DNA of 64,000 nt, from assembly GCA_013815775.1 (NCBI GenBank), contig JACDFN010000003.1, positions 14,354-78,353 on the forward strand, in the 5' to 3' direction. The stretch's first letter is position 1. Each line of letters opens with the position of its first letter. The notes beneath the pieces were generated by a model. That model was not told the DNA's origin. It ran no database searches and saw only the letters and a list, made by a program, of their open reading frames with translations. This DNA comes from Candidatus Saccharimonadota bacterium. Lineage in GTDB: Bacteria > Patescibacteriota > Saccharimonadia > Saccharimonadales > UBA10212. The translations under genes were made by a program, and so were the position numbers. This document shows positions 1,208 to 41,185 of this stretch, piece by piece.

Positions 1208-1870
1208 ATGCAAGGCACACGGTGCTTTTTCGTGACGAGTATTCTGGCCATTTCGAGCGTTTTAGCTGTCTTGGGGCTTGCACCCACGGCACAGGCCAAG
1301 AGCTCGGTTACTACTCGAATCGCAAAGGTCGAGAAACAAATCGAGAAACTCGAGAAACAACAGCACAAGCACCAAAGCGTGGTTAGGTTTTTCAGCAACA
1401 AAGAACGTCGCTGGATGCTTTACCCGAATCAACAGGCAAAACCTTGTTGGAAGGTGAACCCCCGCGGACCGCTCAAGTTATGCACGGTTGCCCGCGGAGC
1501 TGTACGTGCACACGTAAGGCAGTTAGCTTCGGTTCAGGCAAAAATCGAGCATCTCAAGTCGCTACTGCTGGATACCGGCAACGAGGCAAACTGGAGTTGT
1601 ATTCACCGCTACGAGAGGCATCCGAGACAAGGCTGGGCAACGCGCACTGGCAACGGGTACTACGGTGGCTTGCAGATGGATATCTCATTCCAGAGCACCT
1701 ATGGCCCGCATGTGCTCGGCTATCCCGATTCGGAAACGATGTTCCGGAAAAAGGGAACAGCTAACAAGTGGAGTAGTCGTGAGCAGATGGCGGTGGCGGA
1801 ATACGCCCGCCAATCCGGTCGCGGGTACTATCCTTGGCCGAATTCAGCCCGGACTTGCGGACTTATTTAG
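1208..1870 (+). CDS. Secreted Rpf-like (transglycosylase-like) muralytic protein
   Basis: Signal peptide ending AQA/KSS. C-terminal NWSCIHRYE...TGNGYYGGLQMD...WPNSARTCGL resembles the Rpf pattern W..CES..W..NTGNGYYGGLQF...WP.C..GL. G+C is about 60 % or more. Confidence 0.6.
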   Translation: MQGTRCFFVTSILAISSVLAVLGLAPTAQAKSSVTTRIAKVEKQIEKLEKQQHKHQSVVRFFSNKERRWMLYPNQQAKPCWKVNPRGPLKLCTVARGAVRAHVRQLASVQAKIEHLKSLLLDTGNEANWSCIHRYERHPRQGWATRTGNGYYGGLQMDISFQSTYGPHVLGYPDSETMFRKKGTANKWSSREQMAVAEYARQSGRGYYPWPNSARTCGLI

Positions 1871-1888
1871 CCACTTATTCCCGAAAAG

Positions 1889-1915
1889 GTAGGGAGCCCC
1901 ATGGGGCTCCCTACC
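1889..1915. terminator. Perfect GC-rich palindrome between convergent genes (bidirectional terminator candidate)
   Basis: ggtagggagcccc/atg/gggctccctacc forms 13-bp arms. It sits between the stop at 1870 (+) and the stop at 1952 (-). Confidence 0.7.
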
Positions 1916-1951
1916 AACCGTCAATTTAATATGGCGGTTGCCGAGACAAAT

Positions 1952-2599
1952 CTATAAATAAGACTTAAGGCCTTCAAGGTCTTTTAGGACAATAGTTGCT
2001 CGCTGATTACTTATTAAGCCTTTTCTTTCTAAAACTCCTAGCTCGCGGCTAGCAGTTTCCCGGCTGGCATTAATAGAGCTAGCAATGTCTTGATGCCTTA
2101 GGGGCACGTCGATACTGAGCCCCTCCTCTGTTTCATTACCGAAACGCTCAGACATGGTGAGTAAGAATGATATTAATCGCTCTCGCACTGTTCGGTACTC
2201 AAGGTTTAAGATTCTCTGGGAGTGGATTCTATACATTTCAGTGACCATATCAAGAAGAGGAGGTAGGGCAGTGGTATGACTGCGCAGATAGTCTAAATAC
2301 TTCTGCTGGTCTACCCTCCAAAGGCTTGTTGGTACAAGAGCTTGGTAAATAATATCTTTCTCTTCTCCAGTCAGAGTCAGTATAAGCGGGAATATTTCGT
2401 GGCTTTTACGAATAATAAGCAGATTTTCTTCGCCATATTTGCTGATATTGAAGGCTTTGACCAGTCCTTCCTCTATATAATAAACGTGGCTGGGGGTCTC
2501 GCCAGGACGAATTATGAACTCACCCTTTTTATAGGTTAGCTTCGAGCCTTCTTTAAAAAGCCCAACTAGTGCCGCAACCTGCCTCTCGTTCGCTAGCAT
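1952..2599 (-). CDS. Crp/Fnr-family transcriptional regulator (cNMP-binding + HTH)
   Basis: The beta-roll segment FIIRPGETPSHVYYIEEGLVKAF is present. The C-terminal HTH reads HQDIASSINASRETASRELGVLERKGLI. Confidence 0.8.
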   Translation of the reverse strand: MLANERQVAALVGLFKEGSKLTYKKGEFIIRPGETPSHVYYIEEGLVKAFNISKYGEENLLIIRKSHEIFPLILTLTGEEKDIIYQALVPTSLWRVDQQKYLDYLRSHTTALPPLLDMVTEMYRIHSQRILNLEYRTVRERLISFLLTMSERFGNETEEGLSIDVPLRHQDIASSINASRETASRELGVLERKGLISNQRATIVLKDLEGLKSYL

Positions 2600-2608
2600 A
2601 CCTATATC

Positions 2609-2640
2609 TTGTCACATTTTTCCTAAACGTAAAATGTGAT
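2609..2640. promoter_or_regulatory. Inverted repeat in the divergent promoter region (candidate operator)
   Basis: TGTCACATTTT-N10-AAAATGTGATA, with 10 of 11 arm positions complementary and TGTGA/TCACA-like half-sites. It lies 10 nt upstream of the Crp-like gene. Confidence 0.4.
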
Positions 2641-2729
2641 AAAAGTCTTGTCAAATAAGTGCTGAAAATTACTGACTTTTCAGAGGGGTAAGTTCATGAT
2701 GGGAGTATGAGGTAGGGAGAAAATCGCGC

Positions 2730-3341
2730 ATGGTACACCTAAGTATTATCGAGGCAAGGTTATCACATCTAGGCGTAAATATTAGCAGATGGTTTAGGGC
2801 CGAGATAAGGGAATTGCAGCATATACTTATGGATCATGAGCGAATTGTAGCCGTCGTTTGCGGTCGCTACTTTGGCGGCTACGCAATATTAGTAGCTACT
2901 GATCAGAGATTACTGCTCATAGATAAGAAAACCCTTTTTATGACGGTTGAAGACATTCGTTACGATATGATTTCTGAAATAGACTATAGTTCGCGCTTAT
3001 TTGATTCGACGCTAACCATTTTTACGATCAATAAACAGCACCGCTTTACCAGTATGAAATACAGGCAACAGCTTCGTACTCTTACTAATTATGTTCAGCA
3101 AAGGGTTATGGAACTTAGGCACTACGGTCAAGCACCAGAATTTCAGCAATCCAACCAGAACCCTAGGCTCGAGCCATCTACGTATCGCCCCCAAATCACT
3201 CAGGCTCCCTCCGCCCAACGCTCCGCTGACATCCATCAAATAATGGGGGCAGCTGCTCTGCACGATTCGCCGCGAACCAGCCTAAACCCTTATGGCAGAG
3301 TATCTCTTATGACACGAAGACAAATATCCCGAACGCCCTGA
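2730..3341 (+). CDS. Bacterial PH-domain (YokE/bPH-like) protein with a Pro/Gln-rich tail
   Basis: The core ERIVAVVCGRYFGGYAILVATDQRLLLIDKK...STLTIFT is typical of bPH domains. Confidence 0.5.
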   Translation: MVHLSIIEARLSHLGVNISRWFRAEIRELQHILMDHERIVAVVCGRYFGGYAILVATDQRLLLIDKKTLFMTVEDIRYDMISEIDYSSRLFDSTLTIFTINKQHRFTSMKYRQQLRTLTNYVQQRVMELRHYGQAPEFQQSNQNPRLEPSTYRPQITQAPSAQRSADIHQIMGAAALHDSPRTSLNPYGRVSLMTRRQISRTP

Positions 3342-3429
3342 TTACGAAATAAGACGCGCTTTTTGTAACTTTTCACTAAAAGAGGGAAAAGGTGTAATTA
3401 ATTTGCAGGCTGAATTTGGGCAGGGGAGG

Positions 3430-4503
3430 CTATACGTTGAAACGAAATTCAACCACATCGTTCGGCTTCATAATATAAGTTTTACCCTCGGTCCTAACTT
3501 TACCAGCTGCTCGGGCGGCAGCTTCTGAGCCAGCAGATAGTAGGTCATTATAGTCAATTACTTGGGCTGCAATAAAACCCCGTTGAAAATCGGTGTGAAT
3601 TACCCCCGCCGCCTCCGGAGCAGTAGCTCCTTCCCGCACAGTCCACGCTCTAACCTCTTGCTCACCAGCAGTTAAAAAGCTTTGTAATCCCAGTTGCTCA
3701 TAAGCAGCGTGTATCAGCTGTATGAGTCCGCTTTCATCCTGCCCGTAACTGGCTAAAAGTTCTTTTCGGTCACCTTCATCTAAACCGCGGAGTTCACTCT
3801 CTAGCTTCGCACAAACAAAAATAGCTTTGCTGGGCTCTACTAACTGCTGGAGCTGTTTTTTATAAGCCCCGTCACTCATATTTTTCTCATCTAGATTAAA
3901 CACGTAAAGGGTAGGTTTTGCGCTTAGTAGTTGAAGGTCCTCGATATGAGTAAGGTCTATATCATTGCCTCTGGAAAGGGGTAACCCTGCTTTAAGGTTG
4001 CTCTGTACATTAATTAATGTCTCTAACTGGGGTTTGAGTTTTGGATCGGCACGGACTTCTTTTTCCAAACGTGGCAGGCGCTTTTCTATCGTTTGTAAAT
4101 CTGCCAGCGCCAACTCGGTATTTATAATTTCAATGTCAGCTTTTGGTTCGGTAGATCCGGCCCGGGTAACATCCCCATCCTGAAACGCCCTTACTAAATG
4201 GCAAATAGCAATAGTGCTACGAATATGAGCTAAAAATTGATTGCCTAGTCCCTCGCCCTTCGATGCACCTTCAACAAGCCCGGCAATATCAACAAAAGTT
4301 ACGGTTGCTGGAACTATTTTTTTAGTGCCGTAAATATCTGCAAGCTTTTGAAGCCGCGGATCAGGTATAGGTACAATGCCGGTGTTTGGTTCAATGGTGG
4401 CAAAAGGGTAGTTGGCCGACAATGCTCTAGCGTCTGTAAGAGCGTTAAATAAAGTCGACTTACCGACATTGGGCAAGCCAACGATGCCTATAGATAAACT
4501 CAC
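3430..4503 (-). CDS. ychF: Ribosome-binding ATPase YchF (Obg-like GTPase family)
   Basis: G1 motif GIVGLPNVGKSTLFNALT. The C-terminal TGS-like end reads MKPNDVVEFRFNV. Length 357 aa. Confidence 0.9.
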   Translation of the reverse strand: MSLSIGIVGLPNVGKSTLFNALTDARALSANYPFATIEPNTGIVPIPDPRLQKLADIYGTKKIVPATVTFVDIAGLVEGASKGEGLGNQFLAHIRSTIAICHLVRAFQDGDVTRAGSTEPKADIEIINTELALADLQTIEKRLPRLEKEVRADPKLKPQLETLINVQSNLKAGLPLSRGNDIDLTHIEDLQLLSAKPTLYVFNLDEKNMSDGAYKKQLQQLVEPSKAIFVCAKLESELRGLDEGDRKELLASYGQDESGLIQLIHAAYEQLGLQSFLTAGEQEVRAWTVREGATAPEAAGVIHTDFQRGFIAAQVIDYNDLLSAGSEAAARAAGKVRTEGKTYIMKPNDVVEFRFNV

Positions 4504-4537
4504 TACATTAGTCTAACAGAGGTGCTACAATCGTCAT

Positions 4538-5071
4538 ATGACTAGTTACGTGGCTCTTTTGAGAGGTGTTAACGTTGGCGGCAGAATTATTAAGATGGAA
4601 GAGATAAAGAACTGCTTTGAAGACATGGGATATACCAACGTTTCAACAGTGCTGCAAACTGGTAACGTCTTATTTGACGCAAACCCCACTAGCTCAGAGG
4701 ATATGAGAAATGAGATTGAAATGATTGTTGGCAGCACCTTTAACTACCCAGCCAAAGTTCAGATATATAATCTGGATGAGGTCATTAGAATAACTAAAGC
4801 ATATCCATTTAATCGCTCTAAAAAAACCTTTCAGCACTACGTTGTCTTTTTGGACAATAGCAAAGCACGTCAGCTGGCCCGCGAACCGATGAGTCTTGAT
4901 GACAAGGTTGAAAAAATTCAAAAGGGAGACAAAGTTATTTATTGGATGGTTAAAAAAGGTATGACTACCAAAAGTCTTTTTTCAAAATTTCTACTTAAGC
5001 CGCAGTACAAGCAGAGCAATACGGTTCGAAACATTAACACACTCCAAAAGCTAGAAAATAAACATAAATAA
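4538..5071 (+). CDS. DUF1697-family protein
   Basis: The N-terminal signature YVALLRGVNVGGRIIKMEEIK is present. Length 177 aa. Confidence 0.65.
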   Translation: MTSYVALLRGVNVGGRIIKMEEIKNCFEDMGYTNVSTVLQTGNVLFDANPTSSEDMRNEIEMIVGSTFNYPAKVQIYNLDEVIRITKAYPFNRSKKTFQHYVVFLDNSKARQLAREPMSLDDKVEKIQKGDKVIYWMVKKGMTTKSLFSKFLLKPQYKQSNTVRNINTLQKLENKHK

Positions 5072-5847: not shown

Positions 5848-6456
5848 ATGAGGCTATCAAAGCCACAGTGGAATAATTATCTCTTTAGATTAAGAGAATT
5901 CTATAATCGTGGGACCACCAAAAGAAGATACCTGTTAAAAGTGCTTACCGCCCTTATTGTAATTTTATTAGTCTTTGGAGTTTGGGTGGTCTTTTTTAAA
6001 GATAAAAAAATACCTGTATATGTACAGCCCGACCAGGCGTCTGACTCTGCCATTGAATCGTACAAGAACTCTAACGATACCGAAGATTTACGTAGCCTTT
6101 CAAGTGTATACGTCGGGGCCAATAAATACCCCGAAGCTGTTGAAGTTGCCCGCAAAGTAGCTCTAAAAACAGGAGAAGTCATGGACTATATGACCCTGTT
6201 GAACATTTGCGCAATTTATAACGTTCCTACTAAGCAAGCTTGTCTGGAGGAGGTTGCCGCCAAACTAAAACCACAGCTCGGTAAATTATCTTTTTATAAC
6301 GCCTACACTGCCGGGAGGCTTTATGACAAATCCGGGGATACAAAAAATGCCGTAATATTCTATCAGCGGGCTTACGACGTTTATGATGTTAACCGGGCTG
6401 ACGAATACATTAAAACTAAAGAAGAACTAAAGAAGCGCATAGATGAGTTATCGTAG
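5848..6456 (+). CDS. Membrane-anchored TPR-like protein, first gene of the pilus locus
   Basis: One N-terminal TM helix (LLKVLTALIVILLVFGVWVVFF). TPR-like helices follow (AYTAGRLYDKSGDTKNAVIFYQRAYDVYD). The gene overlaps the next by 14 nt. Confidence 0.45.
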   Translation: MRLSKPQWNNYLFRLREFYNRGTTKRRYLLKVLTALIVILLVFGVWVVFFKDKKIPVYVQPDQASDSAIESYKNSNDTEDLRSLSSVYVGANKYPEAVEVARKVALKTGEVMDYMTLLNICAIYNVPTKQACLEEVAAKLKPQLGKLSFYNAYTAGRLYDKSGDTKNAVIFYQRAYDVYDVNRADEYIKTKEELKKRIDELS

Positions 6457-9400
6457 AAAGACTTTAACTGGTTGGGGGATAAAAGGGTTCGGAGCCACAG
6501 TTCTGGGGTTGTTATTATTTGTTTTACTACACAATCCTGCTAGCGCCCAGCAAACAACAGGTGTCCCCATACCTAATAACTTTCTACCTAGGTCACAAGA
6601 TTTTTCCCAAGGAAACGGTGTTTATTTAATAACGGCCATTTACGGTACTGATTATGTTCTGCGTGCCCCTACGTCTACGGTTCGCTTTTATTCTCCAAAT
6701 TCGAGCAACACTATAAATATTGTGGACGGCGGCCATTGCATAGGTTCCGGGCCAGACAGGGGGCCAAACAACGCCGAAGCAGAAACTATCTATAGAGTTT
6801 GGCCACTGTCGCCCGATAATACACCAGCCAATTATAATAACACCCCATTCAATCCCAGAACGGGTCCTGCGCCTTTTGAGGTTTCCAGCAAAACCATCGG
6901 CTGTCAGGCTAGTTATCAATTTAACTTTAATAGTGGTGGTTTTAGTGAGGTAAATCTTGGTCCAGCCGAGGGAAAGTACGCCTTTGAGATAGAAGCCACT
7001 ATGACCGGACCTCAGGGCTGGAACATGTTCAAATACAACGTTGTGTCGGGCGGCGGAAGGTTTAGTTATTACGCCGGGTCGGGGGACAAGTTTGGCCTAA
7101 AAGATGATAGTCCCGGGCTACCGCCAAGCGGTGAACGTGGGAATTTTGCGCTGGGTTTTGCGCCTGGCTGCGCAGTAGCTAATAACGACGCCAGAAGTAT
7201 AACTCTAAAGTGGTTTGATGCTGATGCCGGAGAACCTAACCAAAGAGTTAATGCGTCTGATAATAAGGTAAGGACTCGGCTTGTTGAATACGATACTGCC
7301 GGCAATCCAACCGGCAGGAATATTCCTATTTCTGTAGCTCCATCAGTGGGTGATGCTCCAGGAGGCGGAATTTTAGACATTAAGACGGGCGATGACGTAT
7401 CGGGTCAAGCTCAGATTTCAATACTAGGATACCGCAAGTATAAGTGGGTTTGGGAAAATGTCCACAGCACAAACGGAGTTCAGTTCCAGCTGCCATACGA
7501 CAGTTACAATACTCTTATAGATTTTACAAAGGATTGTGCTACAGAAACTACAAACGCTTCATGTAAAGGCATTCCAACCAACTCAAAACAGGTTGCTATA
7601 GGAGGTGGTACAACCATAAAGATTAGGGCCACCAACACAGGCACCACTAACTGGAATACCCAATTTGCTCTTAGACAGGTTGATCCCGGTGGAGCTAATC
7701 TATTTATGCCCAACGTGGTGGCACCTGGGCAATTTAGAGAGTTTACCTTTAATATAAACGCCAGAACTACAGCCCAAACCGTTGTATTTAAATATAGTAT
7801 GTTTAATGCCAGCGGCATCAGGTTCCCGAGTCAGCCTGACCCGCTGTGTACCGTTACCGTTCAATGGACCAACAGCCCCAACAGCCGGTGGGGAATAATT
7901 GAAGCTAATTGTTCAACCCTGACCTATACCGGCAACCACTTCACTAAAGATGCCAGCGGCAATGTAGCAAATGGTCCGCCACGCAGCTTCACTACTTTTG
8001 CAGGCAGCGATAACGCCACCGAGTTTGGACCCGGCGAATACGTGAAGGTTGCAGTTACCCGCGCCGTTAATACTTCTGGAATGAGTGCCGGTGATGCCAA
8101 TGCCGCCCAACTTACAACCAATGACCCCGGCTATGTCCTATGGGTTAAAGTGCAAAATTCTGGTGATACAGTCAGCTTAATACCACTCGCAGCGGACGGT
8201 TCTTTACCAGATTTGTTTGGCCCGACGCCCGAAGGCTTACGCCCCCAGTATGGTTATACGTTTATCTTAAGTCTTTATAACACTAACGACCCCGGCGAGA
8301 ACAACAGCTCTGAAATTGCCACTACCACCCTGGAGCCCTGTTGGCGGCCGATTGAATGCAGCAGCTTGTCGTATACCGACTATGAACCGGGGCAGACATT
8401 GAATTCTACCTATTCATTCCTGTTTGGTTTAGCAGACAACGGTGATCCGGTAAAGACCAGCCAGTCAGTTGAACGGGACTTAATAAATGTAAGCGGTGAC
8501 CCCAGAGGCAATACCAAAGGCAATTACGCTATAGAAACCATTTTCCAGCCGGGAATCTCCGGAACCTTTATTAGCCCTAACCCAGTCGACTCTATAAGCG
8601 GTAACGGTGATTCTACGGTACAGGTGAAGATGAGCTTGACTGTAGAGTATACCGGCAAAGTTATAGTGCGCTTTAAGTACGGTAATAACCAAACGAATGC
8701 TACTTTGAAACAATGTGAGCAAGAAGTAACCCCACGTACGCGGCCTTACTTAAGAGTCAACCAAGGTGATGTACACACCGGTGGGGCATTTAGAAAACCA
8801 GACGGTAACTGCCCGACTGTAACCGAAGCAGGTTTTGTATCTCCGGCAACCGGTAATAAAAATTCCGGCGGGATTCGAACATTTGGTAACCCGGCCAGCA
8901 GGTTGGGCTCAAGAGTCGATTTTGCGGCCCTGGCATTGGGCTTAATTGACGGATCTTCAGGAGGACCGCCCCTTGGCTTTAGCAGCGCAGTACTTAATCC
9001 GTCTGTTAACTATGAGTATCTTGATTTTGCCAACACCACCTCAGATGAGCTGGGCGGACTACTAGGGGGAGATAATGGCTCAACAACCTTTAATATTGCT
9101 CACTGCATACCCAACTACTTTTACTCAACCCCAAAAATATTAGAGGCCAATAGAGTTTATGAGCCGGAAGATAAATTAATTCTGAACCCTGGCAAAAACG
9201 GCCAATATTATTACCAAACTGCTCCAGGCGTTCCGTACTTAAATCTGGGATCCAATGGTCCCAATTTGGTGGGCAATGGTGACCGGGTTACCTTTTACGT
9301 TAAAGGTGACGTCTATATAACAAAAAATATTGACTACCAAAATAACTGGACTATAACCACTACCTCAAACACCATTCCTTATTTTGCGCTGATAGTTGAG

Positions 9401-9805
9401 GGCAATATTCACGTAGCACCAAATGTTACCAAGATAGAGGGCCTGTATGTAGCCCAGCCTACACCTGCAAACCCCAACGAGAATGGAATTTTCTCTACCT
9501 GTTCACCAGGGGGTTCCGTAGCCACCTCCGATAACATTAGACTGGGTCCACCAGCAGGCTGTTTTAGCCAGTTCACAGTTAACGGCGCTGTGGTAGCTCG
9601 CCATGTAATACCAGTACGAAGCAACGGTACTTTATGGAGGGACAACGGCGGTAATCCACCACCGCAGCTAGGCTTGCCAGCAGACATTTTTAACTATACC
9701 CCATCTGTCGCAATAGGGGATCCTGACTTTAGTCCAATAAACGGTGGCGGTGCAGCGATATTTAGTTCCTTAGAAGGCTTGTTTAGTTTACCGCCTATAT
9801 TTTAA
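6443..9805 (+). CDS. 1120-aa secreted/surface protein of unknown function, pilus-locus associated
   Basis: Uninterrupted 3.36-kb ORF with an N-terminal signal/anchor (GATVLGLLLFVLLHNPASAQQ). It is Gly/Asn/Thr/Pro-rich with no LPXTG motif. Its start overlaps the TPR gene, and pilM follows 60 nt downstream. Confidence 0.7.
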   Translation: MSYRRKTLTGWGIKGFGATVLGLLLFVLLHNPASAQQTTGVPIPNNFLPRSQDFSQGNGVYLITAIYGTDYVLRAPTSTVRFYSPNSSNTINIVDGGHCIGSGPDRGPNNAEAETIYRVWPLSPDNTPANYNNTPFNPRTGPAPFEVSSKTIGCQASYQFNFNSGGFSEVNLGPAEGKYAFEIEATMTGPQGWNMFKYNVVSGGGRFSYYAGSGDKFGLKDDSPGLPPSGERGNFALGFAPGCAVANNDARSITLKWFDADAGEPNQRVNASDNKVRTRLVEYDTAGNPTGRNIPISVAPSVGDAPGGGILDIKTGDDVSGQAQISILGYRKYKWVWENVHSTNGVQFQLPYDSYNTLIDFTKDCATETTNASCKGIPTNSKQVAIGGGTTIKIRATNTGTTNWNTQFALRQVDPGGANLFMPNVVAPGQFREFTFNINARTTAQTVVFKYSMFNASGIRFPSQPDPLCTVTVQWTNSPNSRWGIIEANCSTLTYTGNHFTKDASGNVANGPPRSFTTFAGSDNATEFGPGEYVKVAVTRAVNTSGMSAGDANAAQLTTNDPGYVLWVKVQNSGDTVSLIPLAADGSLPDLFGPTPEGLRPQYGYTFILSLYNTNDPGENNSSEIATTTLEPCWRPIECSSLSYTDYEPGQTLNSTYSFLFGLADNGDPVKTSQSVERDLINVSGDPRGNTKGNYAIETIFQPGISGTFISPNPVDSISGNGDSTVQVKMSLTVEYTGKVIVRFKYGNNQTNATLKQCEQEVTPRTRPYLRVNQGDVHTGGAFRKPDGNCPTVTEAGFVSPATGNKNSGGIRTFGNPASRLGSRVDFAALALGLIDGSSGGPPLGFSSAVLNPSVNYEYLDFANTTSDELGGLLGGDNGSTTFNIAHCIPNYFYSTPKILEANRVYEPEDKLILNPGKNGQYYYQTAPGVPYLNLGSNGPNLVGNGDRVTFYVKGDVYITKNIDYQNNWTITTTSNTIPYFALIVEGNIHVAPNVTKIEGLYVAQPTPANPNENGIFSTCSPGGSVATSDNIRLGPPAGCFSQFTVNGAVVARHVIPVRSNGTLWRDNGGNPPPQLGLPADIFNYTPSVAIGDPDFSPINGGGAAIFSSLEGLFSLPPIF

Positions 9806-9837
9806 GTAAAAAAGACCAGAAAAATTAAAAAGGCTTA

Positions 9838-9846
9838 TGCTATAAT
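9838..9846 (+). promoter_or_regulatory. Extended -10 box (TGcTATAAT) upstream of pilM
   Basis: gcttaTGcTATAAT lies 19 nt before the ATG at 9866. The same gcttatgctata word recurs at 18320-18331. Confidence 0.35.
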
Positions 9847-9865
9847 CTGAAATAATGGAATAAAC

Positions 9866-10906
9866 ATGAATATACTGAGTGGGGTATCAGACTTTTTTGG
9901 ACTTGACATCGGTAGCACTGCGCTGCGAGCCGTGTTACTGCGTGGCACAGGGCCTATAAAAGCACTGGAGCGGTATTACCAAATGCCTATCGACAGCACA
10001 ATTACGCTTAGTGATTCCAACATGGATCAGCAAAAGCTGGCCGGAGTTATCAAAGATTTTATACACAAGTCAGGTATTTCAAGTAAGAACGTGGCCGTTA
10101 ACCTACCTTCACACAGGGTCTTTACAACTGTAGTTGATATGGACAAAATGCCCATGGACGAGCTAGCTAAAGCAATTCATTATCAAGCCGAGTCGTTTAT
10201 CCCAACCAACCCAGACCAGTCAAAAGTAGATTGGGCGGTAATAGGTGACTCTCCGAAAGATCCTAAGAAATTAGAAATTCTTTTAACCAGTGTGCCAAAC
10301 GAATTCGTAGAGAGACGGCTAGATTTAATCGAGGCCATAGGCTTGAACGTTATTGCTTTTGAACCCGACAGTATTGCACTGGCCAGAGCTGTTGTCCCTG
10401 TAGACCTAGCTACCCCGCAGCTAATACTTGACGTGGGAAGTAAAGCTACTGATTTGGTCATAGCTATGAACGGGGCTCCTCATTTATCTAGGGCAATCCC
10501 TGTAGGATCAGAAGCTATTATTAGAACCGCCATGCAAAACCTGAGCATCGATCAAGCTCAGGCCGAGCAATTCATATTTAAGTTTGGACTCGGCAAAGAC
10601 AAAGTTGAGGGTCAAATCTACAGTGCCATCATCGGTACAATCGACAATCTTATGTCCGAAATTGAAAAATCAATAAAATTTTTCCAAAGCAGGTATCCGA
10701 ACACTAAATTAGAAAGAATTATAGTTACTGGTGGGGCATCTTCAATGCCGGAGTTACCGCTACATATCGCAAACCGCTTTGGAATCAGCGTAGAGATAGG
10801 CAATGCTTGGCGAAATGTTTCTTTTCCTTCCAGTAAACAAAACGAACTGCTAGCTGTTTCTAACCATTTTGCAGTTGCGGTAGGACTGGCGGAGAGGGCG
10901 GCATGA
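9866..10906 (+). CDS. pilM: Type IV pilus assembly protein PilM (actin-like ATPase fold)
   Basis: N-terminal FFGLDIGSTALRAV. Length 346 aa. ATGA overlap with the next gene. Position at the head of the pilMNO block. Confidence 0.75.
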   Translation: MNILSGVSDFFGLDIGSTALRAVLLRGTGPIKALERYYQMPIDSTITLSDSNMDQQKLAGVIKDFIHKSGISSKNVAVNLPSHRVFTTVVDMDKMPMDELAKAIHYQAESFIPTNPDQSKVDWAVIGDSPKDPKKLEILLTSVPNEFVERRLDLIEAIGLNVIAFEPDSIALARAVVPVDLATPQLILDVGSKATDLVIAMNGAPHLSRAIPVGSEAIIRTAMQNLSIDQAQAEQFIFKFGLGKDKVEGQIYSAIIGTIDNLMSEIEKSIKFFQSRYPNTKLERIIVTGGASSMPELPLHIANRFGISVEIGNAWRNVSFPSSKQNELLAVSNHFAVAVGLAERAA

Positions 10907-11604
10907 AGATTCAATTCAACCTGCTTCCCGACGTAAAGCAGCAGTATCTAAAGACTCAGCGTACTAAACGGAACGTAATGCTTATTGCAACATTAGTAAG
11001 CGGGATAGCAGTCTTTCTTTTGCTTATAATGCTCAGCACCGTCTACATAATTAATAAAAAACAAATTAGTGACGCCGAAAAGGATATAACAAAGTACACA
11101 AACGAAGTTAAAGCCATTCCGGATATCAATAAGATTTTAACTGTTCAGTCCCAACTGGAGTCTTTAATAGAGTTGCATAAGAATAAAAAAGCGGTATCGC
11201 GTCTATTCCAATATTTACCACAGCTTACCCCCAACAATATTTTCCTGGGCTCTTTGTCTATGGATTTTTCTACAAATACTATGGAAATTGACGGTACTAC
11301 AGACACCCAGAAAACTATCAATACTTTTATTGATACTCTAAAATTCACTACCTATAAACTGGATGGCAAGGACACCAAGACAAGGGCGTTTCCGTCGGTC
11401 CTTGAAAGCAGCTTTGGTATCACCGAGAAAGGTGCCACCTACACTCTCACGATCCAATTTGACCCTACCTTATTTATTAATTCTCAAAAAGTAGAATTAA
11501 TTGTACCGGCCGGGCTGTCGACTACACGCTCTATTTTGAAAGATCCTACAAGCCTTCTATTTAACGGAGTTGTAGCTGAAGAACCCAAGGAAGGGGTACA
11601 GTAA
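10903..11604 (+). CDS. pilN: PilN-like pilus assembly protein
   Basis: FNLLPD start (INLLP-like), a single TM helix, then a coiled coil. Translationally coupled to pilM. Confidence 0.6.
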   Translation: MKIQFNLLPDVKQQYLKTQRTKRNVMLIATLVSGIAVFLLLIMLSTVYIINKKQISDAEKDITKYTNEVKAIPDINKILTVQSQLESLIELHKNKKAVSRLFQYLPQLTPNNIFLGSLSMDFSTNTMEIDGTTDTQKTINTFIDTLKFTTYKLDGKDTKTRAFPSVLESSFGITEKGATYTLTIQFDPTLFINSQKVELIVPAGLSTTRSILKDPTSLLFNGVVAEEPKEGVQ

Positions 11605-12288
11605 ATGAAACTAGCTGTTTCTACTAAACATTTCCAGATCAACAAAGCCAATAACATGATCCTAGTCGTTATGGCGGTCTCGGCTATTATTACGGTTTTT
11701 TGCTTAGTTAGCGCCAAAGCACTTCTTAGCCAGGCCTCATACCAAAGAAAGGTAATTAGCGAAAAGGATAAAGCAGTTGACCAGCTGAAAGAAAACGTTA
11801 AAGCGGGCAAAGAGCTGGCCGCTCAGTACAACGTCTTTGAGAAAGCCGACCCCAACATAATTGGTGGTAAGGGAGGAGATTTACCCGGTGAAGGCCCGCT
11901 TGACGGAGATAATCCCAGAATAGTATTAGACGCGCTTCCTAGCCAATACGATTTTCCAGCTCTGGCTTCTAGCGTTGAGAAAATAGTCACCAGTGCCGCC
12001 CTTATACCATCAGAACTGGGAGGGACCGATGAAGGCCAAGATAGTTTGGCGGCTCCGGAACCAACTGCTAACCCAACCCCGTCCGAGATGGGCTTCACCC
12101 TAGAGGTTAGTAATACTTATTTAACCCTTCAGACATTAATTAAAGATCTAGAGCGTTCCATAAGGCCTATCGATGTTCAAACTGTAGAGTTTGCCGGTAA
12201 AGAAGATGCCATGACCTTAACTATAAAAGCCAGAACATACTTTCAGCTGGGCTCGGGATTTGTTGTTGGGCAGAAGGAGGTTAAGTAG
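11605..12288 (+). CDS. pilO: PilO-like pilus assembly protein
   Basis: Single TM helix (MILVVMAVSAIITVFCLV) plus a coiled coil. The gene abuts pilN (TAAATG). Confidence 0.5.
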   Translation: MKLAVSTKHFQINKANNMILVVMAVSAIITVFCLVSAKALLSQASYQRKVISEKDKAVDQLKENVKAGKELAAQYNVFEKADPNIIGGKGGDLPGEGPLDGDNPRIVLDALPSQYDFPALASSVEKIVTSAALIPSELGGTDEGQDSLAAPEPTANPTPSEMGFTLEVSNTYLTLQTLIKDLERSIRPIDVQTVEFAGKEDAMTLTIKARTYFQLGSGFVVGQKEVK

Positions 12289-12552
12289 ATGAAGCAAAAA
12301 GAATTTTTACTAATTGCTGTGATAGTTATCGTTTCGGCGGTTATATCAAGTATAGCCGCAAATGCTATATTCAACTCTTCTGACCAGCGTAAAGAGAAAG
12401 TGGCTGTCGTAGAGCCAATTAGCAGTAAGTTCCCACCTGTGCAAAATGATAGCGACTATCAAGCATTTTTCAATCCAAACGCAATTAACCCAACACAACT
12501 AATTAAGATTGGTACTAGCCAAAACACCACACCATTTAATGAAAAACCGTAG
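12289..12552 (+). CDS. Small single-pass membrane protein in the PilP position
   Basis: 87 aa with one TM helix (FLLIAVIVIVSAVISSIAA). The start abuts the pilO stop (TAGATG). Confidence 0.4.
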   Translation: MKQKEFLLIAVIVIVSAVISSIAANAIFNSSDQRKEKVAVVEPISSKFPPVQNDSDYQAFFNPNAINPTQLIKIGTSQNTTPFNEKP

Positions 12553-12567: not shown

Positions 12568-14361
12568 ATGAACGTCTTATCGCCTACCGTCCAGCAGCAC
12601 GTAGAAGAGATGCTGGTAAAAGACGGTGCAATAGACGATAGCAAGTTGGCCCAAATCAAAGAAAAGGCTAAGGCAAACAACGAGCCTTTCTTCAGTCTTC
12701 TTTTAAGCGAAGGTCATATAAATGATGAACAGCTTACCAAGACTTTGGCGGCTGTTTCCAAGGTTCCTTACGTAAACCTCAGCAAGGCCAGGATTGAACC
12801 AAAAATACTGGATTTACTCCCGCAAGATACAGCCGAACAGTTCATGGCAGTACCTCTTGGTAAAATGCAAAACCGGCTTGTGGTAGCAATGTTAGATGCC
12901 GATAATGTTCAAGCGGTTGATTTTTTGAGTAATAAAATAGGCAAAACCCTAAAAGTTTATGCGGCGAGCGAATCAGGCATTCGGCATATTCTAGAGCAAT
13001 ATCAACACTCAATCGAGCGCGGTGTTACATCCATGCTATCAAAGGTTCCTGAGGATCTAGGAGTTGAGGAGGGCGTGGTTGAATCTCTTCAGCCAAATTT
13101 AAGTAAGGTTAAAACCATAGTTCAGGACTCTCCTATCGCAAAAGCCTTGGCTGCAATTATGGATTACGCTGGCAAAAATCGGGCTAGTGATATTCATATA
13201 GAACCCCTTGAGAAAGAACTAAAGATACGTTGCCGTATTGACGGAGTATTACAGGAAGTCATGAAACTGCCCAAAAGCGCCGAAGCAGCTATGGTCAGCC
13301 GCATAAAGATTTTAAGCAATCTAAAAATTGATGAACACCGCATACCTCAGGATGGTAATTTTTCTATTACCGTTGATGGCCGGCCTGTAGACCTTAGGAT
13401 TGCAATCAGCCCAGTGGTATGGGGGGAGCAGGTAGTTATGAGGCTACTAGACAAAACTGGAACCAGTCTAAAGCTTGAAGATATGGGTTACCGCGGCAGG
13501 GCACTAAGGGCACTTAGAAGCGGGCTAAAACAGCCTTACGGAATGATTTTGACCTCCGGTCCTACTGGTTCGGGTAAATCAACCTCTATGTACGCTATGA
13601 TTCAAGAAATAAAAAATGATTCCATTAATATAGTTACCCTTGAAGATCCAGTAGAATATAAAATTGAGGGCGTAAACCAGATTCAGGTAAACCCAGATGT
13701 TGGTTTAACCTTTGCTACCGGGCTACGCTCAATTCTACGTCAAGACCCTGATGTCGTTATGGTAGGAGAGATTCGAGACAAGGAAACAGCCAGCTTGGCC
13801 GTACAAGCAGCACTTACGGGTCACTTAGTGTTTTCTACACTCCATACCAACAGTGCCGCGGGAATTTTACCACGCTTGCTCGATATGGGGGTGGAACCTT
13901 TTTTAATTGCCAGCACAGTCCACACTGTTATAGGCCAGCGTCTGGTTCGAAAAGTAGTACCAGGCGGTGAAAAATATCAGTCTACTAAAGCCGAAACCGC
14001 AGAAATTCATGAAACCTTAAAAGACTTATTACCAAAAACCAAAGATGAGATCACCAAGAAAGCGGATGACTTGGGCTTTGACGACTTGCCACTAGACGAC
14101 CAAAATGCTTATACTTTAGTCAAAGGTAAACCAACCCCTGAGAACCAAACAGGGTACCAGGGTCGGATGGGCCTTTACGAAGTGTTTGAGGTTACAGAGA
14201 AAATTCAGGACTTAATAATTAAACATTCCACAAGTTCTGAAATTCAAAGAATGGCTCAATCTCAAGGCATGGTAACCATGCGCCAAGACGGTTACTTAAA
14301 AGCACTAGCAGGGAAAACAACACTTCTAGAAGTTAATAGAGTAGCGTCAACCGAAGCATAA
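12568..14361 (+). CDS. pilB: Type IV pilus assembly (extension) ATPase PilB/GspE family
   Basis: Walker A SGPTGSGKSTS, Walker B/Asp box DPDVVMVGEIRD, His box TGHLVFSTLHTN, and an N-terminal GspE-N-like domain. Confidence 0.9.
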   Translation: MNVLSPTVQQHVEEMLVKDGAIDDSKLAQIKEKAKANNEPFFSLLLSEGHINDEQLTKTLAAVSKVPYVNLSKARIEPKILDLLPQDTAEQFMAVPLGKMQNRLVVAMLDADNVQAVDFLSNKIGKTLKVYAASESGIRHILEQYQHSIERGVTSMLSKVPEDLGVEEGVVESLQPNLSKVKTIVQDSPIAKALAAIMDYAGKNRASDIHIEPLEKELKIRCRIDGVLQEVMKLPKSAEAAMVSRIKILSNLKIDEHRIPQDGNFSITVDGRPVDLRIAISPVVWGEQVVMRLLDKTGTSLKLEDMGYRGRALRALRSGLKQPYGMILTSGPTGSGKSTSMYAMIQEIKNDSINIVTLEDPVEYKIEGVNQIQVNPDVGLTFATGLRSILRQDPDVVMVGEIRDKETASLAVQAALTGHLVFSTLHTNSAAGILPRLLDMGVEPFLIASTVHTVIGQRLVRKVVPGGEKYQSTKAETAEIHETLKDLLPKTKDEITKKADDLGFDDLPLDDQNAYTLVKGKPTPENQTGYQGRMGLYEVFEVTEKIQDLIIKHSTSSEIQRMAQSQGMVTMRQDGYLKALAGKTTLLEVNRVASTEA

Positions 14362-14399: not shown

Positions 14400-15467
14400 A
14401 TGCAACAACAACCAAAAATAGAACTGCTGCTCGACGAAATCGTAAAACGTAAAGCATCTGACCTTCACTTACAGGTAGGTTTACCTCCCATGATGCGCGT
14501 AGATGGTGCTTTGTTGGCTATCCACGGATCAGCCCCGCTAAACGAAGAAGCAGTCGAGATCCTTATTTTTAGCTTGCTCGACGAAGATCAAAAACAAATT
14601 CTGCTTAGAGATAAGGAGTTCGATTTCAGCTTTGCCTTCGGTGATCTGGGCCGCTTTCGAGTAAATGCTTTTCATGAACGGGGTAACTTGGCTGCTGCCA
14701 TGCGGCTGATTCCTCACGAAATTCCAACTATCGAACAGTTGGGGCTACCTACTATTATTAACAAATTTACCGAATACCCCCGCGGTTTAGTCCTAGTGAC
14801 TGGCCCTACGGGATCTGGTAAGTCTACTACCTTAGCCGCCTTGGTTAACAGAATTAATAGCGAACGCGCAGTACACATTATTACTGTAGAGGATCCTATT
14901 GAATATACTCATGTGTCGAAAAGAGCAGTAATTGTCCAGCGCGAAGTACACTATGATACTTTTAGCTTTTCTACAGCTCTCCGCTCAGCACTACGTGAAG
15001 ATCCAGACGTAGTTCTTATAGGTGAAATGCGCGATTTAGAAACAATTGCAGCGGCAATTACAATCGCAGAAACCGGCCACTTAGTTTTTGCTACGCTACA
15101 TACCAACAGTGCTGCCCAAAGTATCGATCGTATGGTAGACGTTTTTCCACCCCACCAGCAACCGCAGATTAGAGCCCAGCTTAGCAATATTCTTATGGCA
15201 ATTTGCTCTCAGCGTCTGATACCAGCTATCGGAAGCGGACGAATTGCGGCGGCTGAGATACTAATAGCCACCCCAGCAGCCCGGAACATCATTCGCGAGG
15301 GTAAATCATACCAACTTGAGGCAGTTATTCAAACAGGAGCGGAGTTTGGTATGCAGAGCATGGACAAAACACTAGTGGGTCTTATCCATGGGGGCATCAT
15401 AAGTTATGATGAAGCTAGAAATTATGCGGTTGATCTTCAAGAACTTGATAGGTTTATGAGAGGCTAG
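14400..15467 (+). CDS. pilT: Twitching-motility retraction ATPase PilT
   Basis: 355 aa. Walker A GPTGSGKSTT, His box TGHLVFATLHTN, and the PilT-type ARNIIREGK motif. Confidence 0.9.
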   Translation: MQQQPKIELLLDEIVKRKASDLHLQVGLPPMMRVDGALLAIHGSAPLNEEAVEILIFSLLDEDQKQILLRDKEFDFSFAFGDLGRFRVNAFHERGNLAAAMRLIPHEIPTIEQLGLPTIINKFTEYPRGLVLVTGPTGSGKSTTLAALVNRINSERAVHIITVEDPIEYTHVSKRAVIVQREVHYDTFSFSTALRSALREDPDVVLIGEMRDLETIAAAITIAETGHLVFATLHTNSAAQSIDRMVDVFPPHQQPQIRAQLSNILMAICSQRLIPAIGSGRIAAAEILIATPAARNIIREGKSYQLEAVIQTGAEFGMQSMDKTLVGLIHGGIISYDEARNYAVDLQELDRFMRG

Positions 15468-15474: not shown

Positions 15475-16704
15475 ATGCTAACTTATACTTATACGGCCAG
15501 GGAAAGCTCCACCGGGAAGAAAATAAAAGCTGAGCTTCAAGCCGAATCTGAAAAAGCAGCAGCAAAGTTGCTCAAGGAACGCGGCCTACAAGCCCTTGAA
15601 ATAACCCAAGAGGGAGGTAAGAAGAGTCCCTTAGACAAGATTTTAAAGCGAATCCCTACTAAAGAAAAAGTTATATTCTCGCGCCAGCTCTCAACCCTTA
15701 TAAACGCCGGTCTACCCATAGTTCAGAGCCTTCAAAACGTTAGCGAACAGACTAGCAATAAGACTTTCAGTTCAATTATAAATAGCATTATTCAAGATGT
15801 TGAAGCGGGCTCATCTTTTTCAGTAGCGCTCTCAAAATATCCAAAGGTTTTCAACAATGTATATATTAGCCTTGTAGCCGCCGGAGAAACTTCTGGTACT
15901 TTGGACGTGTCACTTGAGCGATTAGCGAATCAGCAGGAAAAAGATGCTGACATCATCTCAAAAGTCCGAGGGGCCATGATTTATCCAATCATAGTTATGG
16001 TTGTAATGATGGCTGTGGTAATTTTCATGTTGACGACAGTTTTGCCTCAGGTGCAAGTTCTCTACGATGGCTTGCCTGGGGCAGAGTTACCGCTACTTAC
16101 TAAAGTTTTGCTTTCCATGTCTAACGCATTAATCAACTACTGGTGGATTTTTATAGTCATCTTGGTTTTCTTTGCCTTCATGTTCAGCAGGTGGGCACGT
16201 ACCGGACCAGGGAAGCAAGTGATAGACCAGTTAAAGATGACAATGTGGCCGGTAGGACCGTTGTTTGTCAAACTTTACATGGCTCGTTTTTCTAGGACAG
16301 GAGCCACCTTAGTGGGTAGCGGGGTTCCCCTGCTTCAAATGCTAGGTATTACTGCCGAGGCCGTTAACAACGTTCATATAGCTTCTTCCATAAATAAGGC
16401 TGCTGAGAAAGTTAAAGGCGGTAAATCTTTATCGGAAGGTCTTATGGGCGAGCCGCACTTTCCCGATCTAGTGCCTAATATGATTCGGATAGGCGAGCAA
16501 TCGGGCGCGATGGAAGCTATGATGGGCAAAAGCGCCGACTATTACGAGAAAGAAGTAGATAACCAAATTAAAGCAATATCGACACTCGTAGAGCCGGTAT
16601 TGATGATCATAATGGGCATAGTTGCCTTTCTGATAGTAGCTGCTGTTCTACTGCCTATATACGGCCTTGTAGGACATGTGGGTGTCAGCGGAGTAGGGAG
16701 GTAA
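15475..16704 (+). CDS. pilC: Type IV pilus platform protein PilC (GspF family)
   Basis: 409 aa with two GspF-type repeats (FSRQLSTLINAGLPI and FSRTGATLVGSGVPL) and three TM segments. Confidence 0.9.
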   Translation: MLTYTYTARESSTGKKIKAELQAESEKAAAKLLKERGLQALEITQEGGKKSPLDKILKRIPTKEKVIFSRQLSTLINAGLPIVQSLQNVSEQTSNKTFSSIINSIIQDVEAGSSFSVALSKYPKVFNNVYISLVAAGETSGTLDVSLERLANQQEKDADIISKVRGAMIYPIIVMVVMMAVVIFMLTTVLPQVQVLYDGLPGAELPLLTKVLLSMSNALINYWWIFIVILVFFAFMFSRWARTGPGKQVIDQLKMTMWPVGPLFVKLYMARFSRTGATLVGSGVPLLQMLGITAEAVNNVHIASSINKAAEKVKGGKSLSEGLMGEPHFPDLVPNMIRIGEQSGAMEAMMGKSADYYEKEVDNQIKAISTLVEPVLMIIMGIVAFLIVAAVLLPIYGLVGHVGVSGVGR

Positions 16705-16791: not shown

Positions 16792-17319
16792 ATGAAAAAT
16801 CTACTAAGAAAAGAAAGAAGCTCAGGGTTCACCATCATCGAAGTGATGATAGTACTGGCCATAGCCGGGCTTATCATGGTTATTGTGTTTATTGCTGTGC
16901 CTCAGCTTCAGCGAAACCAGCGGGACAACGCTCGCCAGAACATAGCAAACCGTATTAAAGCTGAAATTGAGACATACGCGGGTAATAATCAAGGCCAGTA
17001 TCCCTTCCAAACCGGAACAGGCACTGGAACGTGGAACGATTTTTATACTCGTTACGTAGCCAGCGGTAAAGTTAAGGTAACAGATCCATCTACAGGCAAT
17101 GATGTTATATCTGCCTCGCTTGGACAGCCTGTAGGCTATTCGAGTCCTACCAACCCAGCGCCACCAGACAGTAAAGGGGAGTTTGTAATTGCTTACGGCG
17201 CCAAGTGTGACGGAGAGTTATGGGCCGCTTCAGGTCTTGCCAATCCAACTACAAGGACCTATGCTCTCATGATAGGACTTGACCGTGATGAGACTCGTTA
17301 CTGCGTAGACAACGGCTAA
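16792..17319 (+). CDS. pilA: Major type IV pilin
   Basis: Class III signal MKNLLRKERSSG/FTIIEVMIVLAIAGLI with Glu at +5. SD AAAGGGGG. A dedicated terminator follows directly. Confidence 0.85.
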   Translation: MKNLLRKERSSGFTIIEVMIVLAIAGLIMVIVFIAVPQLQRNQRDNARQNIANRIKAEIETYAGNNQGQYPFQTGTGTGTWNDFYTRYVASGKVKVTDPSTGNDVISASLGQPVGYSSPTNPAPPDSKGEFVIAYGAKCDGELWAASGLANPTTRTYALMIGLDRDETRYCVDNG

Positions 17320-19176: not shown

Positions 19177-19723
19177 TAGGGTAAATATGAGAATGCGAAG
19201 AATAAAGACATCAAACCGGAACCGAAACAGAGGTGACACACTCGTAGAAGTCTTGCTTTCCATAGCTATCGTTGGACTGGCTATTGCCAGTAGCTACGCA
19301 CTTGCCACCAGAGCACTGCGTCAAGCAATTACAGCCAGCGAGCGAACAGAAGCTCTTAAAATCGCCGAAGGACAGGTAGAATCTCTGAAATTTAGGCAAT
19401 TGAATTCATCGCCCACTAACTGGGCTGCTAATTTTGTTGAAGCTACAAACTTCTGCTTAGACACCTCGGCTATAACTCAGAACCAGTCAACTTGGGCGCC
19501 TGTCCAGAATCCTGGCTCCGACCCAACAACTTTAACGGCCGCCAACTACGACCTCGATACGTGTGCTATCAACCGAACAGGCTATGAGAAGTATTTTATT
19601 AATATCAGTATTGCCCCTGGCCTGAATGCTCAGGCGAAGAAATATCCAACATACCTAGTTAAAGTAACTTGGGACGGTATCAACGGTTCACAGAATCAAT
19701 CACAACTTTACTTTAGGTTTTAA
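19160..19723 (+). CDS. Minor (pseudo)pilin; the real start is probably the ATG at 19187
   Basis: Prepilin motif NRG/DTLVEVLLSIAIVGLAI with Glu at +5. Confidence 0.7.
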   Translation: MSPVSSRVNMRMRRIKTSNRNRNRGDTLVEVLLSIAIVGLAIASSYALATRALRQAITASERTEALKIAEGQVESLKFRQLNSSPTNWAANFVEATNFCLDTSAITQNQSTWAPVQNPGSDPTTLTAANYDLDTCAINRTGYEKYFINISIAPGLNAQAKKYPTYLVKVTWDGINGSQNQSQLYFRF

Positions 19724-41179: not shown

Positions 41180-41185
41180 AATTTC

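Follow-up and report, generated by a model that had tools for sequence, protein, structure and literature searches.

The 64-kb window analysed here is a contiguous stretch of a metagenome-assembled genome (MAG) of Candidatus Saccharibacteria (contig JACDFN010000003.1). It contains a complete type IV pilus locus, which is preceded on the same strand by two genes, one encoding a small protein with a predicted membrane anchor and the other a secreted protein of 1120 amino acids (aa). The latter, which is the subject of this analysis, is identical to NCBI protein H0X09_03315 (deposited as a hypothetical protein) and represents the largest open reading frame (ORF) of the window, as already stated in an initial annotation of the stretch; the runner-up in the ORF listing comprises 964 aa. 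It belongs, as an enlarged version, to an undescribed family whose members are exported by Sec, disulfide-bonded, and distinct from pilins; the family appears to be confined to T4P-1-type pilus operons of environmental Saccharibacteria. Of the devices by which Saccharibacteria attach to their hosts, type IV pili have the strongest support, and the epibiotic life of these bacteria cannot do without them (PMC10633639, PMC9894109, PMC11623550).

The export signal of the 1120-aa protein is a cleavable Sec-type signal peptide. The only hydrophobic segment of the protein (residues ~10–31) is followed by a signal-peptidase-I site of the AxA type (A33-S34-A35/Q36), in which A35 is invariant across the close homologues in the alignment. 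Gly, Asn, Thr, and Pro together account for 36.8% of the protein (vs. ~20% in PilB and PilM), and there are 14 Cys residues. A scan of the sequence revealed neither an LPXTG-plus-transmembrane sorting signal nor a prepilin motif (G/FTLIE) or a C-terminal transmembrane segment. These results agree with the initial annotation, which had described an N-terminal signal or anchor, a Gly/Asn/Thr/Pro-rich body, and the lack of LPXTG and prepilin motifs; the N-terminal signal can now be specified as a Sec signal peptide. Several other identities were rejected. An LPXTG/sortase anchor is incompatible with the missing hydrophobic C-terminal segment and the terminal sequence ...SLPPIF, a pilin or pseudopilin with the cleavable Sec signal peptide and the missing prepilin motif, and a C-terminal Phe signal of the autotransporter or outer-membrane-protein type with the proline-rich tail; moreover, the organism has no outer membrane. 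A lipoprotein identity and a C-terminal transmembrane anchor were likewise dismissed upon inspection of the sequence.

A word-indexed search recovered 10 full-length homologues (1071–1158 aa, 33–48% identity), and the alignment of these close homologues divides the mature protein into a conserved N-domain, an immunoglobulin (Ig)-like domain, a variable middle, and a conserved C-domain with a short terminal tail (Table 1). The N-domain, which is present at the N-terminus of ~48 of the 155 best family representatives, contains the invariant motifs AGSGD (211–215) and FDxDAGxxNQ (258–267) and four conserved cysteines (Cys99/154/243/365). AlphaFold2 (AF2) was run on two domain fragments with 10-row alignments each, and the model of the N-terminal fragment is usable (m3cd09a0830d8, residues 31–480); the mean predicted local distance difference test score (pLDDT) is 74, with values of mostly 60–88 for the N-domain and >90 for the Ig-like part. 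Foldseek matches of the N-domain in PDB and BFVD represent generic beta-sandwich noise. The Ig-like part belongs to the FW type of NBR1 (4OLE, E 4.9e-6, TM-target 0.71) and ILRUN (6VHI, TM-target 0.77). The corresponding Pfam family N_BRCA1_IG (PF16158) matches 3 of the 10 homologues (best E 4.4e-7), the window protein itself remains below the threshold in a single-sequence Pfam search, and hhalign aligns the Ig-like region to P0011 at a probability of 90%. The FW domain is the only part of the protein pinned down by Foldseek against these two databases. The model of the C-domain gave no significant match. Within the window, no domain of the protein has a paralogue.

In proteins with an N-domain, a short motif, [L/M/F]P[N/D][P/Q]x[D/N]F, is conserved just past the signal-peptide cleavage site. 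In the window protein, it reads PIPNNFLPRSQDF (6548–6620, residues ~36–60), and the motif occurs also in P0048, P0092, P0101, P0106, P0132, and others. Since the C-terminal tail is conserved as well, mature N-domain proteins carry a conserved short motif at either end.

The C-domain is a separable module (hhalign to P0012, probability 99.5%) and forms the core of a large family. An exhaustive HMMER profile search over 1.84 billion cluster representatives yielded 5,266 proteins at E ≤ 0.001, of which 3,717 remain at a cut-off of 1e-10 and 1,391 at 1e-30, with part of the weaker matches due solely to the repeated Ig-like domain. Together with the 10 full-length homologues, these numbers contradict the designation as an orphan protein in the initial annotation. 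Among the 155 best representatives, 99 combine the C-domain with another N-terminal region or with none, 38 possess both N- and C-domains, and ~25 consist of only a Sec signal peptide and the C-domain (~350–400 aa); stand-alone forms of the C-domain span ~330–435 aa. Searches of Pfam, NCBIfam, PHROGs, and PDB sequences, conducted with the single sequence and with profiles, produced no match above threshold, and literature searches on DUF7305, LPPVF, adhesins or beta-helices of Saccharibacteria, and minor-pilin tips in the candidate phyla radiation (CPR) found no description of the family. Hence, within the libraries and literature searched, the family is indeed not yet described, as the initial annotation had assumed, and homology to an unrelated enzyme family, which it had named as an argument against a pilus function, was not found.

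Motifs of the C-domain comprise RPYxxVxxGDxxxGGxF, FAN, HCxxxYF, xVTFYVxGDVxIxxNIxY, PYFALIVxGNI, xGLYVAQP, TC...C, VNGAVxA...R..GT, and A[D/E]IFNYxPS, and the cysteines at positions 790/888/1020/1040 are near-invariant. A linker that varies in length leads to the C-terminal end [S/N]LPP[V/I][F/L/Y]-COOH, which almost all family members share. The traits that define the family, i.e., the Sec signal peptide, the C-domain with four cysteines, the LPP tail, and the position directly upstream of pilM, are all present in the window protein and recur throughout the family.

In the loci of environmental Saccharibacteria that were scored, the T4P-1-type operon invariably begins with the family gene as its first cistron. 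It is located next upstream of pilM and on the same strand in 13 of 13 loci looked up, which comprise the window and 12 others (L001, L002, L004, L006, L007, L008, L009, L011, L012, L013, L014, and L015) and cover versions of 1000–1150 aa, an N- plus C-domain version of 775 aa, versions of 650–760 aa, and two minimal forms of ~370 aa; L010, whose contig ends inside a second family gene, is unscorable. A genome-locus search with the full-length alignment yielded 3 loci, and a metagenome scan yielded 55. Because the latter was seeded only with C-domain peptide patterns, its sampling is blind to pilM. In all 45 metagenome loci with at least 700 nt of downstream sequence, some of which are near-duplicates and therefore not all independent, a PilM ORF starts within 400 nt of the family gene; the gaps measure mostly ~20–200 nt, and pilM is followed by pilN-O-s87-B-T-C as far as the contig reaches. 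Five further loci with shorter flanks likewise show pilM. The genes 5' of the family gene vary (YchF, GDSL lipase, pilin, GMP synthase, GH43, or toxin-antitoxin genes), while the adjacency to pilM is constant, and in none of the 63 contexts that could be scored does a family member lie outside a pilus locus. The synteny with pilus genes in relatives, whose lack the initial annotation would have held against a pilus function, is therefore strong.

This constancy bears on the question of whether the protein is linked to the pilus at all. It might be an unrelated surface protein that shares the neighbourhood through conserved gene order, with the C-domain as surface anchor and the N-terminal regions as passengers. 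Anchored surface proteins typically combine a variable N-terminus with a conserved C-terminus and end motif, as seen here; YchF is syntenic too, despite being unrelated to pili; pilM may have its own promoter; and Southlakia manages without the gene at this locus (see below). The adjacency to pilM in every scorable locus despite the changing 5' genes, the shared strand with mostly short gaps, and the absence of the family from other contexts nevertheless render a mere bystander quite improbable.

The large versions of the family are closely tied to the small protein encoded immediately upstream. In the window, the stop codon of this partner gene overlaps the start of the large gene by 14 nt. 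Homologous partners precede the large gene in L001, L002, L004, L006, L007, and L008, and proteins of the same design do so in L013, L014, and L015. Overlaps of stop and start by 1–17 nt occur in 12 of 12 gene-called cassettes, all of which encode large versions; 11 of these cassettes encode a partner of ~180–250 aa with a basic N-terminus, a single transmembrane helix, and a helical ectodomain that shows weak tetratricopeptide repeat (TPR) signatures. No such gene neighbours the minimal forms of L011 and L012. For the partner in the window, the match to TPR models (E ~3e-4) remains under the Pfam cut-offs, and in L014 it is just faintly visible; the "TPR gene" of the initial annotation is therefore not confirmed. 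The partner has no lipobox Cys and is predicted, by the positive-inside rule, to be anchored with its N-terminus inside and its C-terminus outside; the combination of lipoprotein signal and TPR that characterizes a pilotin is thus missing. The idea that the partner is what the LPPVF tail binds in all family members was rejected because the minimal forms retain the tail without a nearby partner. The two boundaries of the large gene described in the initial annotation, i.e., the 14-nt overlap with the upstream gene and the end 60 nt before pilM, are correct, and the gene at 9866 is identified as pilM by Pfam (PilM_2, 1.3e-39) and TIGR01175 (147 bits vs. a cut-off of 133 bits). They do not bear equally on the translational coupling into the pilus locus that was claimed in the same place: given the overlap on one side and the gap on the other, conserved translational coupling joins the large protein to its partner and not to PilM.

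Table 1. Features of the locus and of the 1120-aa protein. Coordinates refer to the window; those of duplicated cassettes refer to the respective locus.
Feature	Coordinates	Strand	Remarks
Partner gene, 202 aa	5848..6456	+	Basic N-terminus; predicted transmembrane helix ~31–50; ~150-aa helical/TPR-like ectodomain
1120-aa ORF	6443..9805	+	ATG start; coordinates include stop codon
Sec-type signal peptide, residues 1–35	6443..6547	+	n-region RRK, h-region GATVLGLLLFVLL, c-region PASA/Q; sole hydrophobic window
Conserved N-domain, residues ~36–365	6548..7537	+	All-beta, 2–3 beta-sandwich subdomains
NBR1 FW-type Ig-like domain, residues ~372–480	7556..7882	+	AF2, Foldseek, and Pfam in homologues
Variable middle, residues ~481–739	7883..8659	+	Poor conservation, many indels; Cys490/633/639; no confident AF2 model; alignment A1, columns ~500–1100
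Conserved C-domain, residues ~740–1120	8660..9802	+	Family core; alignments A1, A4
C-terminal tail SLPPIF-COOH, residues 1115–1120	9785..9802	+	Joined by variable-length linker
Intergenic gap, 60 nt	9806..9865	+	Extended -10-like TGcTATAAT 9838–9846; GGA 9857–9859
pilM	9866–10906	+	
pilN	10903–11604	+	
pilO-like	11605–12288	+	
s87	12289–12552	+	
pilB	12568–14361	+	
pilT	14400–15467	+	
pilC	15475–16704	+	
Major pilin	16792–17319	+	
pilD	17479–18309	+	
Minor pilin	18334–19176	+	
Minor pilin	19160–19723	+	
Minor pilin	19727–20422	+	
Minor pilin	20432–21631	+	Weak PilX_N match
Duplicated partner + family-gene cassettes, L001	10001–17005		
Duplicated partner + family-gene cassettes, L008	10001–16797		
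Duplicated partner + family-gene cassettes, L014	9454–14884		
Duplicated partner + family-gene cassettes, L015	9457–16187		

The gap between the large gene and pilM contains an extended -10-like element (TGcTATAAT), located 19 nt before the ATG, which suggests that pilM may have its own promoter besides read-through from the cassette. Because the element was not among the sites reported by a consensus scan for sigma-70 promoters, and the counts of sigma-70 promoters and terminators equal chance, it is a lead only. Among the downstream genes, the pilO-like gene is supported by Pfam hints to PilO in its orthologues of L013 and L014. The following gene, s87, encodes an 87-aa bitopic protein with an N-terminal transmembrane helix and an ectodomain of ~55 aa, lies between the pilO-like gene and pilB, has no family annotation, and is conserved in 38 of 51 related loci; its product could be a PilP-like or another unrecognised part of the machine.

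The family gene is tandemly duplicated upstream of pilM in four loci (L001, L008, L014, and L015). In L015, a MazE/PIN toxin-antitoxin pair is located between the two cassettes. The pilB gene of L009 (13799–16321) is seemingly split, and a segment with pilT and pilB lies on the opposite strand just past pilM-N-O-s87, which reflects either a rearrangement or a mis-assembly of the MAG. L013 (19534–21667) encodes two Pfam Beta_helix_4 proteins (141 and 487 aa) after the pilin gene, at the place that pilD occupies in other loci. In L004 (1657–3049), the cassette is preceded at a distance of a few kb by three tandem T4SS_pilin/TrbC-like genes in the opposite orientation.

Two regions further downstream in the window are also unusual. 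A stretch of ~1.5 kb (~39800–41340) has no ORF of at least 60 aa and falls into the region with the lowest GC content of the window (0.355 for 40001–42000); it contains no Rfam family at the gathering threshold and no tandem repeats. In the rRNA operon (52504–61738), the 16S rRNA gene ends at 53973 and the tRNA-Ile gene starts at 56197, leaving a spacer of 2.2 kb, and a second spacer of 1.6 kb separates the end of the tRNA-Ala gene (56541) from the start of the 23S rRNA gene (58168), which spans 3160 nt vs. the 2925 positions of the model. The long spacers and the length of the 23S rRNA gene suggest the presence of inserted elements; insertions are often reported in the rRNA genes of CPR bacteria.

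The family gene is not found at every T4P-1 locus. In Southlakia epibionticum ML1, the only cultured model strain for which a gene table was examined, pilM (SEML1_0104, start at 103892) abuts YchF (SEML1_0103, end at 103880) without an intervening gene. The T4P1 genes of Southlakia are class I essential (PMC10633639), and the published T4P-1 locus of TM7x lists only machinery genes and pilins (PMC11623550). Many environmental loci from the metagenomes are ordered YchF(−)/family gene/pilM, and the simplest reading is that the family gene was lost at the position upstream of pilM in the host-associated lineage. Its absence from this position in Southlakia indicates that T4P-1 machines do not all require the protein as a core part.

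The evolutionary rate of the family core likewise sets it apart from the membrane machine. Median identities to the window proteins across 51 loci amount to 83% for PilT, 71% for PilB, 63% for PilM, 62% for PilC, 46% for PilN, 45% for s87, 42% for PilO, and 41% for the major pilin. The C-domain (31%) falls closest to the minor pilins (34–36%) and therefore evolves like the exposed components of the fibre.

Both observations bear on the possibility that the protein is an envelope-proximal part of the machine, which joins PilM-N-O(-s87) outside the membrane and forms or lines the channel that takes the pilus through the wall or outer layer, as a monoderm counterpart of PilP/PilQ, with the partner in a pilotin-like role. 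The gene is invariably located upstream of pilM-N-O rather than with the minor pilins, the minimal form without any adhesin-like extension is the commonest, and a conserved component of the machine might be what the invariant tail binds; also the coupling to a TPR-like partner recalls the pairing of secretins with pilotins such as PilF and Tgl. Nevertheless, such a role seems unlikely. Secretin, N0, and PilP domains were not detected in the searches, the gene is missing at a Southlakia locus whose T4P-1 genes are essential, and the protein evolves faster than PilN and PilO. The Ig/FW expansions and the tandem cassettes suggest the diversification of an adhesin rather than a conduit of fixed stoichiometry, and the partner is neither a lipoprotein nor found beside the minimal forms. 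A more specific version, in which a collar or conduit crosses the envelope, docks to PilN/PilO/s87 via its LPPVF tail with the help of the partner in the large versions, guides the fibre across wall and outer layer, and acts as the equivalent of a secretin with an unrelated fold, is more doubtful still. The protein is not a homologue of PilY1 or of a secretin, the two families to which the initial annotation had compared it, as none of their domains was detected: even with the cut-off relaxed to E ≤ 10, Pfam and NCBIfam gave no match to the beta-propeller of PilY1/PilC, neither for the window protein nor for its 10 homologues and a set of 25 C-domains, and the secretin C-domain and the N0/N1 domains have no match in Pfam, NCBIfam, or PDB sequences. 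The window protein also lacks matches to N_methyl and PilX_N.

The fold of the C-domain offers further clues. The second AF2 fragment gave a poor model (pLDDT 44, 10-row alignment), and the secondary structure predicted from it consists of short strands that are solenoid-like and not propeller-like. Foldseek matches of this model, all of them non-significant, are beta-solenoids, i.e., the ice-binding proteins 5UYT and 6EIO (E 0.9–5), MinC, and hexapeptide-repeat transferases. The self-similarity of the C-domain profile shows weak peaks at shifts of 14, 28, and 42 columns, and the periodic core reads xVTxYVxGDVxIxGNIxY / PYFALIVxGNIxI / LDGLYVAQP / LxVNGAVIAQ. A beta-solenoid is thus a lead for the fold of the C-domain rather than a proven structure. 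The sole recurring match in Pfam is DUF7305 (PF23981), a family that presumably accompanies PilX_N; it is hit by 6 of 25 C-domains and 1 of 10 full-length homologues (E 0.009–10, best 0.0087), never reaches the gathering threshold of 27 bits (P0129, ~14 bits), and does not match the window protein.

A solenoid core would also be compatible with a pilus-linked enzyme that cleaves glycans, such as a beta-helix polysaccharide lyase or hydrolase resembling pectate lyases or phage tailspikes, which might open the cell's own wall for the pilus or digest polysaccharides of the host surface where the cells touch. Beta-solenoids are usually hydrolytic enzymes, as stated in the report on ComZ (PMC6561018), and an active site of the Asp/Glu/Arg type could be made up of the few near-invariant polar positions of the C-domain (in window numbering, D776, N864, D891, Q1005, T1019, R1059, and E/D1081). 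However, no lyase or hydrolase family was matched in Pfam, NCBIfam, PHROGs, or PDB sequences, and clustering of these residues is not demonstrable on a model with such a low pLDDT. The 37 columns with at least 85% identity among 158 sequences are mostly Gly (9), Pro (6), Cys (4), and Ile (4), a pattern better suited to a binding module or a scaffold stabilised by disulfides than to an enzyme, even if it leaves room for a small active site. A glycan-cleaving function is therefore improbable.

In view of its genomic context, the 1120-aa protein is probably a functional accessory of the pilus of some kind. What it does there is less certain. The evidence leans toward an exposed adhesin or plug, as indicated by the modular expansions of the N-terminus and an evolutionary rate like that of minor pilins, whereas the fixed place beside pilMNO keeps a role as accessory of the machine alive. 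The adhesin or accessory function put forward in the initial annotation is thus plausible, and its secretin-like branch is less likely. We tentatively favour a non-pilin tip plug or adhesin analogous to PilY1 or ComZ, a possible function that would fall slightly short of being probable. This reading is based on the adjacency to pilM, the PilY1-like architecture, the features typical of extracellular binding proteins, the minor-pilin-like rate, the leads to a beta-solenoid, and the coupling to the partner. Binding is suggested by the 14 cysteines, the FW/Ig-like and beta-sandwich domains, and the prevalence of conserved Gly, Pro, Cys, and Ile over catalytic residues.

As a tip plug or adhesin, the protein would be exported by the Sec pathway and, after cleavage of the signal peptide, would dock with its C-module and tail on a conserved partner in the pilus, most likely the priming complex of minor pilins at the pilus tip. 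There it might act as plug or adhesin in the manner of PilY1 or the beta-solenoid of ComZ/PilX, and the N-terminal additions that vary among lineages (the beta-sandwich and FW Ig domains and the variable region) would offer binding surfaces to the host cell. The membrane-anchored, TPR-like partner could serve as an extracytoplasmic chaperone or as a holding dock for the large versions.

Several observations weigh against this assignment. Homology to PilY1, ComZ, or any other pilus protein is evident neither in sequence nor in structure, and the model of the C-domain is poor. Known pilY1 and comZ genes are located inside minor-pilin operons; here, the large gene adjoins pilMNO, and the minor pilins begin ~8.5 kb downstream (18334). 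The essential T4P-1 locus of Southlakia, which has no family gene upstream of pilM, implies that the protein is not needed for pilus assembly in every lineage. Since the minimal forms keep the LPPVF tail in the absence of a partner, the tail is not simply the ligand of the latter. The synteny, apart from the near-duplicates among the metagenome loci, is drawn from a single phylum with a generally conserved gene order, in which also YchF is frequently nearby.

Functional work to date has, to our knowledge, dealt with oral or insect strains and has been confined to the core machine and the pilins. The T4P-1 operon of environmental Saccharibacteria begins with an additional fixed gene. This gene encodes a fast-evolving secreted protein, the N-terminal part of which has undergone expansion, duplication, and diversification between lineages. 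If its product is indeed an adhesin or plug, it would be a prime candidate for a determinant of host range in a phylum with unexplained host specificity and would represent, next to PilY1 and the ComZ/PilX solenoid, a second, independent solution to the capping of type IV pili. Regardless of the precise role, the results plausibly define a new family of non-pilin type IV pilus accessories on an unclassified fold by its genomic context, a definition that could be extended to ~1,400 to 5,000 sequence clusters that are so far unannotated.

Among the known systems, PilY1/PilC is the closest in overall architecture. Like PilY1, the family member of the window is a Sec-exported non-pilin of ~1000–1200 aa that combines a conserved C-module with a variable N-terminus and is encoded in a pilus cluster, and duplicated copies exist in some systems. 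By contrast, the family lacks the beta-propeller, its gene is located upstream of pilM and not among the minor pilins, and the organism is a monoderm; the LPPVF tail and the transmembrane TPR-type partner are traits of the saccharibacterial family and not of PilY1. The ComZ protein of Thermus thermophilus and the cyanobacterial PilX carry a triangular beta-solenoid of ~380 residues at the pilus tip, which resembles ice-binding proteins and has been proposed to replace PilY1 as tip plug where the latter is missing (PMC6561018; bioRxiv 10.64898/2026.02.12.705559). The C-module is of similar size (~350–380 aa), may also be a beta-solenoid, and is linked to type IV pili, which provides a functional analogy and a lead rather than a demonstrated relationship; the solenoids of ComZ and PilX are insertions in a pilin fold and are encoded with the minor pilins, whereas the module here is part of a free protein that is secreted by the Sec pathway and has no pilin helix.

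The pairing of PilQ with the TPR pilotins PilF/PilW/Tgl is mirrored by a large, secreted, beta-rich protein encoded next to pilMNO together with a small TPR-type protein. However, the family gene precedes pilM instead of following pilP, the partner is anchored by a transmembrane helix and is not a lipoprotein, secretin and N0 domains were not detected, the gene is missing at the Southlakia locus with its functional T4P-1, and the organism lacks an outer membrane. The likeness to NBR1 and ILRUN concerns the fold of the FW domain (PF16158), a single accessory domain that is missing from most family members. A final parallel is offered by modular minor pilins, as represented by PilB/PilC of Streptococcus sanguinis and PilX1/PilX2 of TM7x (PMC8179133, PMC11623550). 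Although their modules are fused to a pilin, whereas the window protein has an ordinary signal peptide and no pilin moiety, they resemble it in that binding modules are added to a type IV pilus, both in monoderms and in Saccharibacteria.

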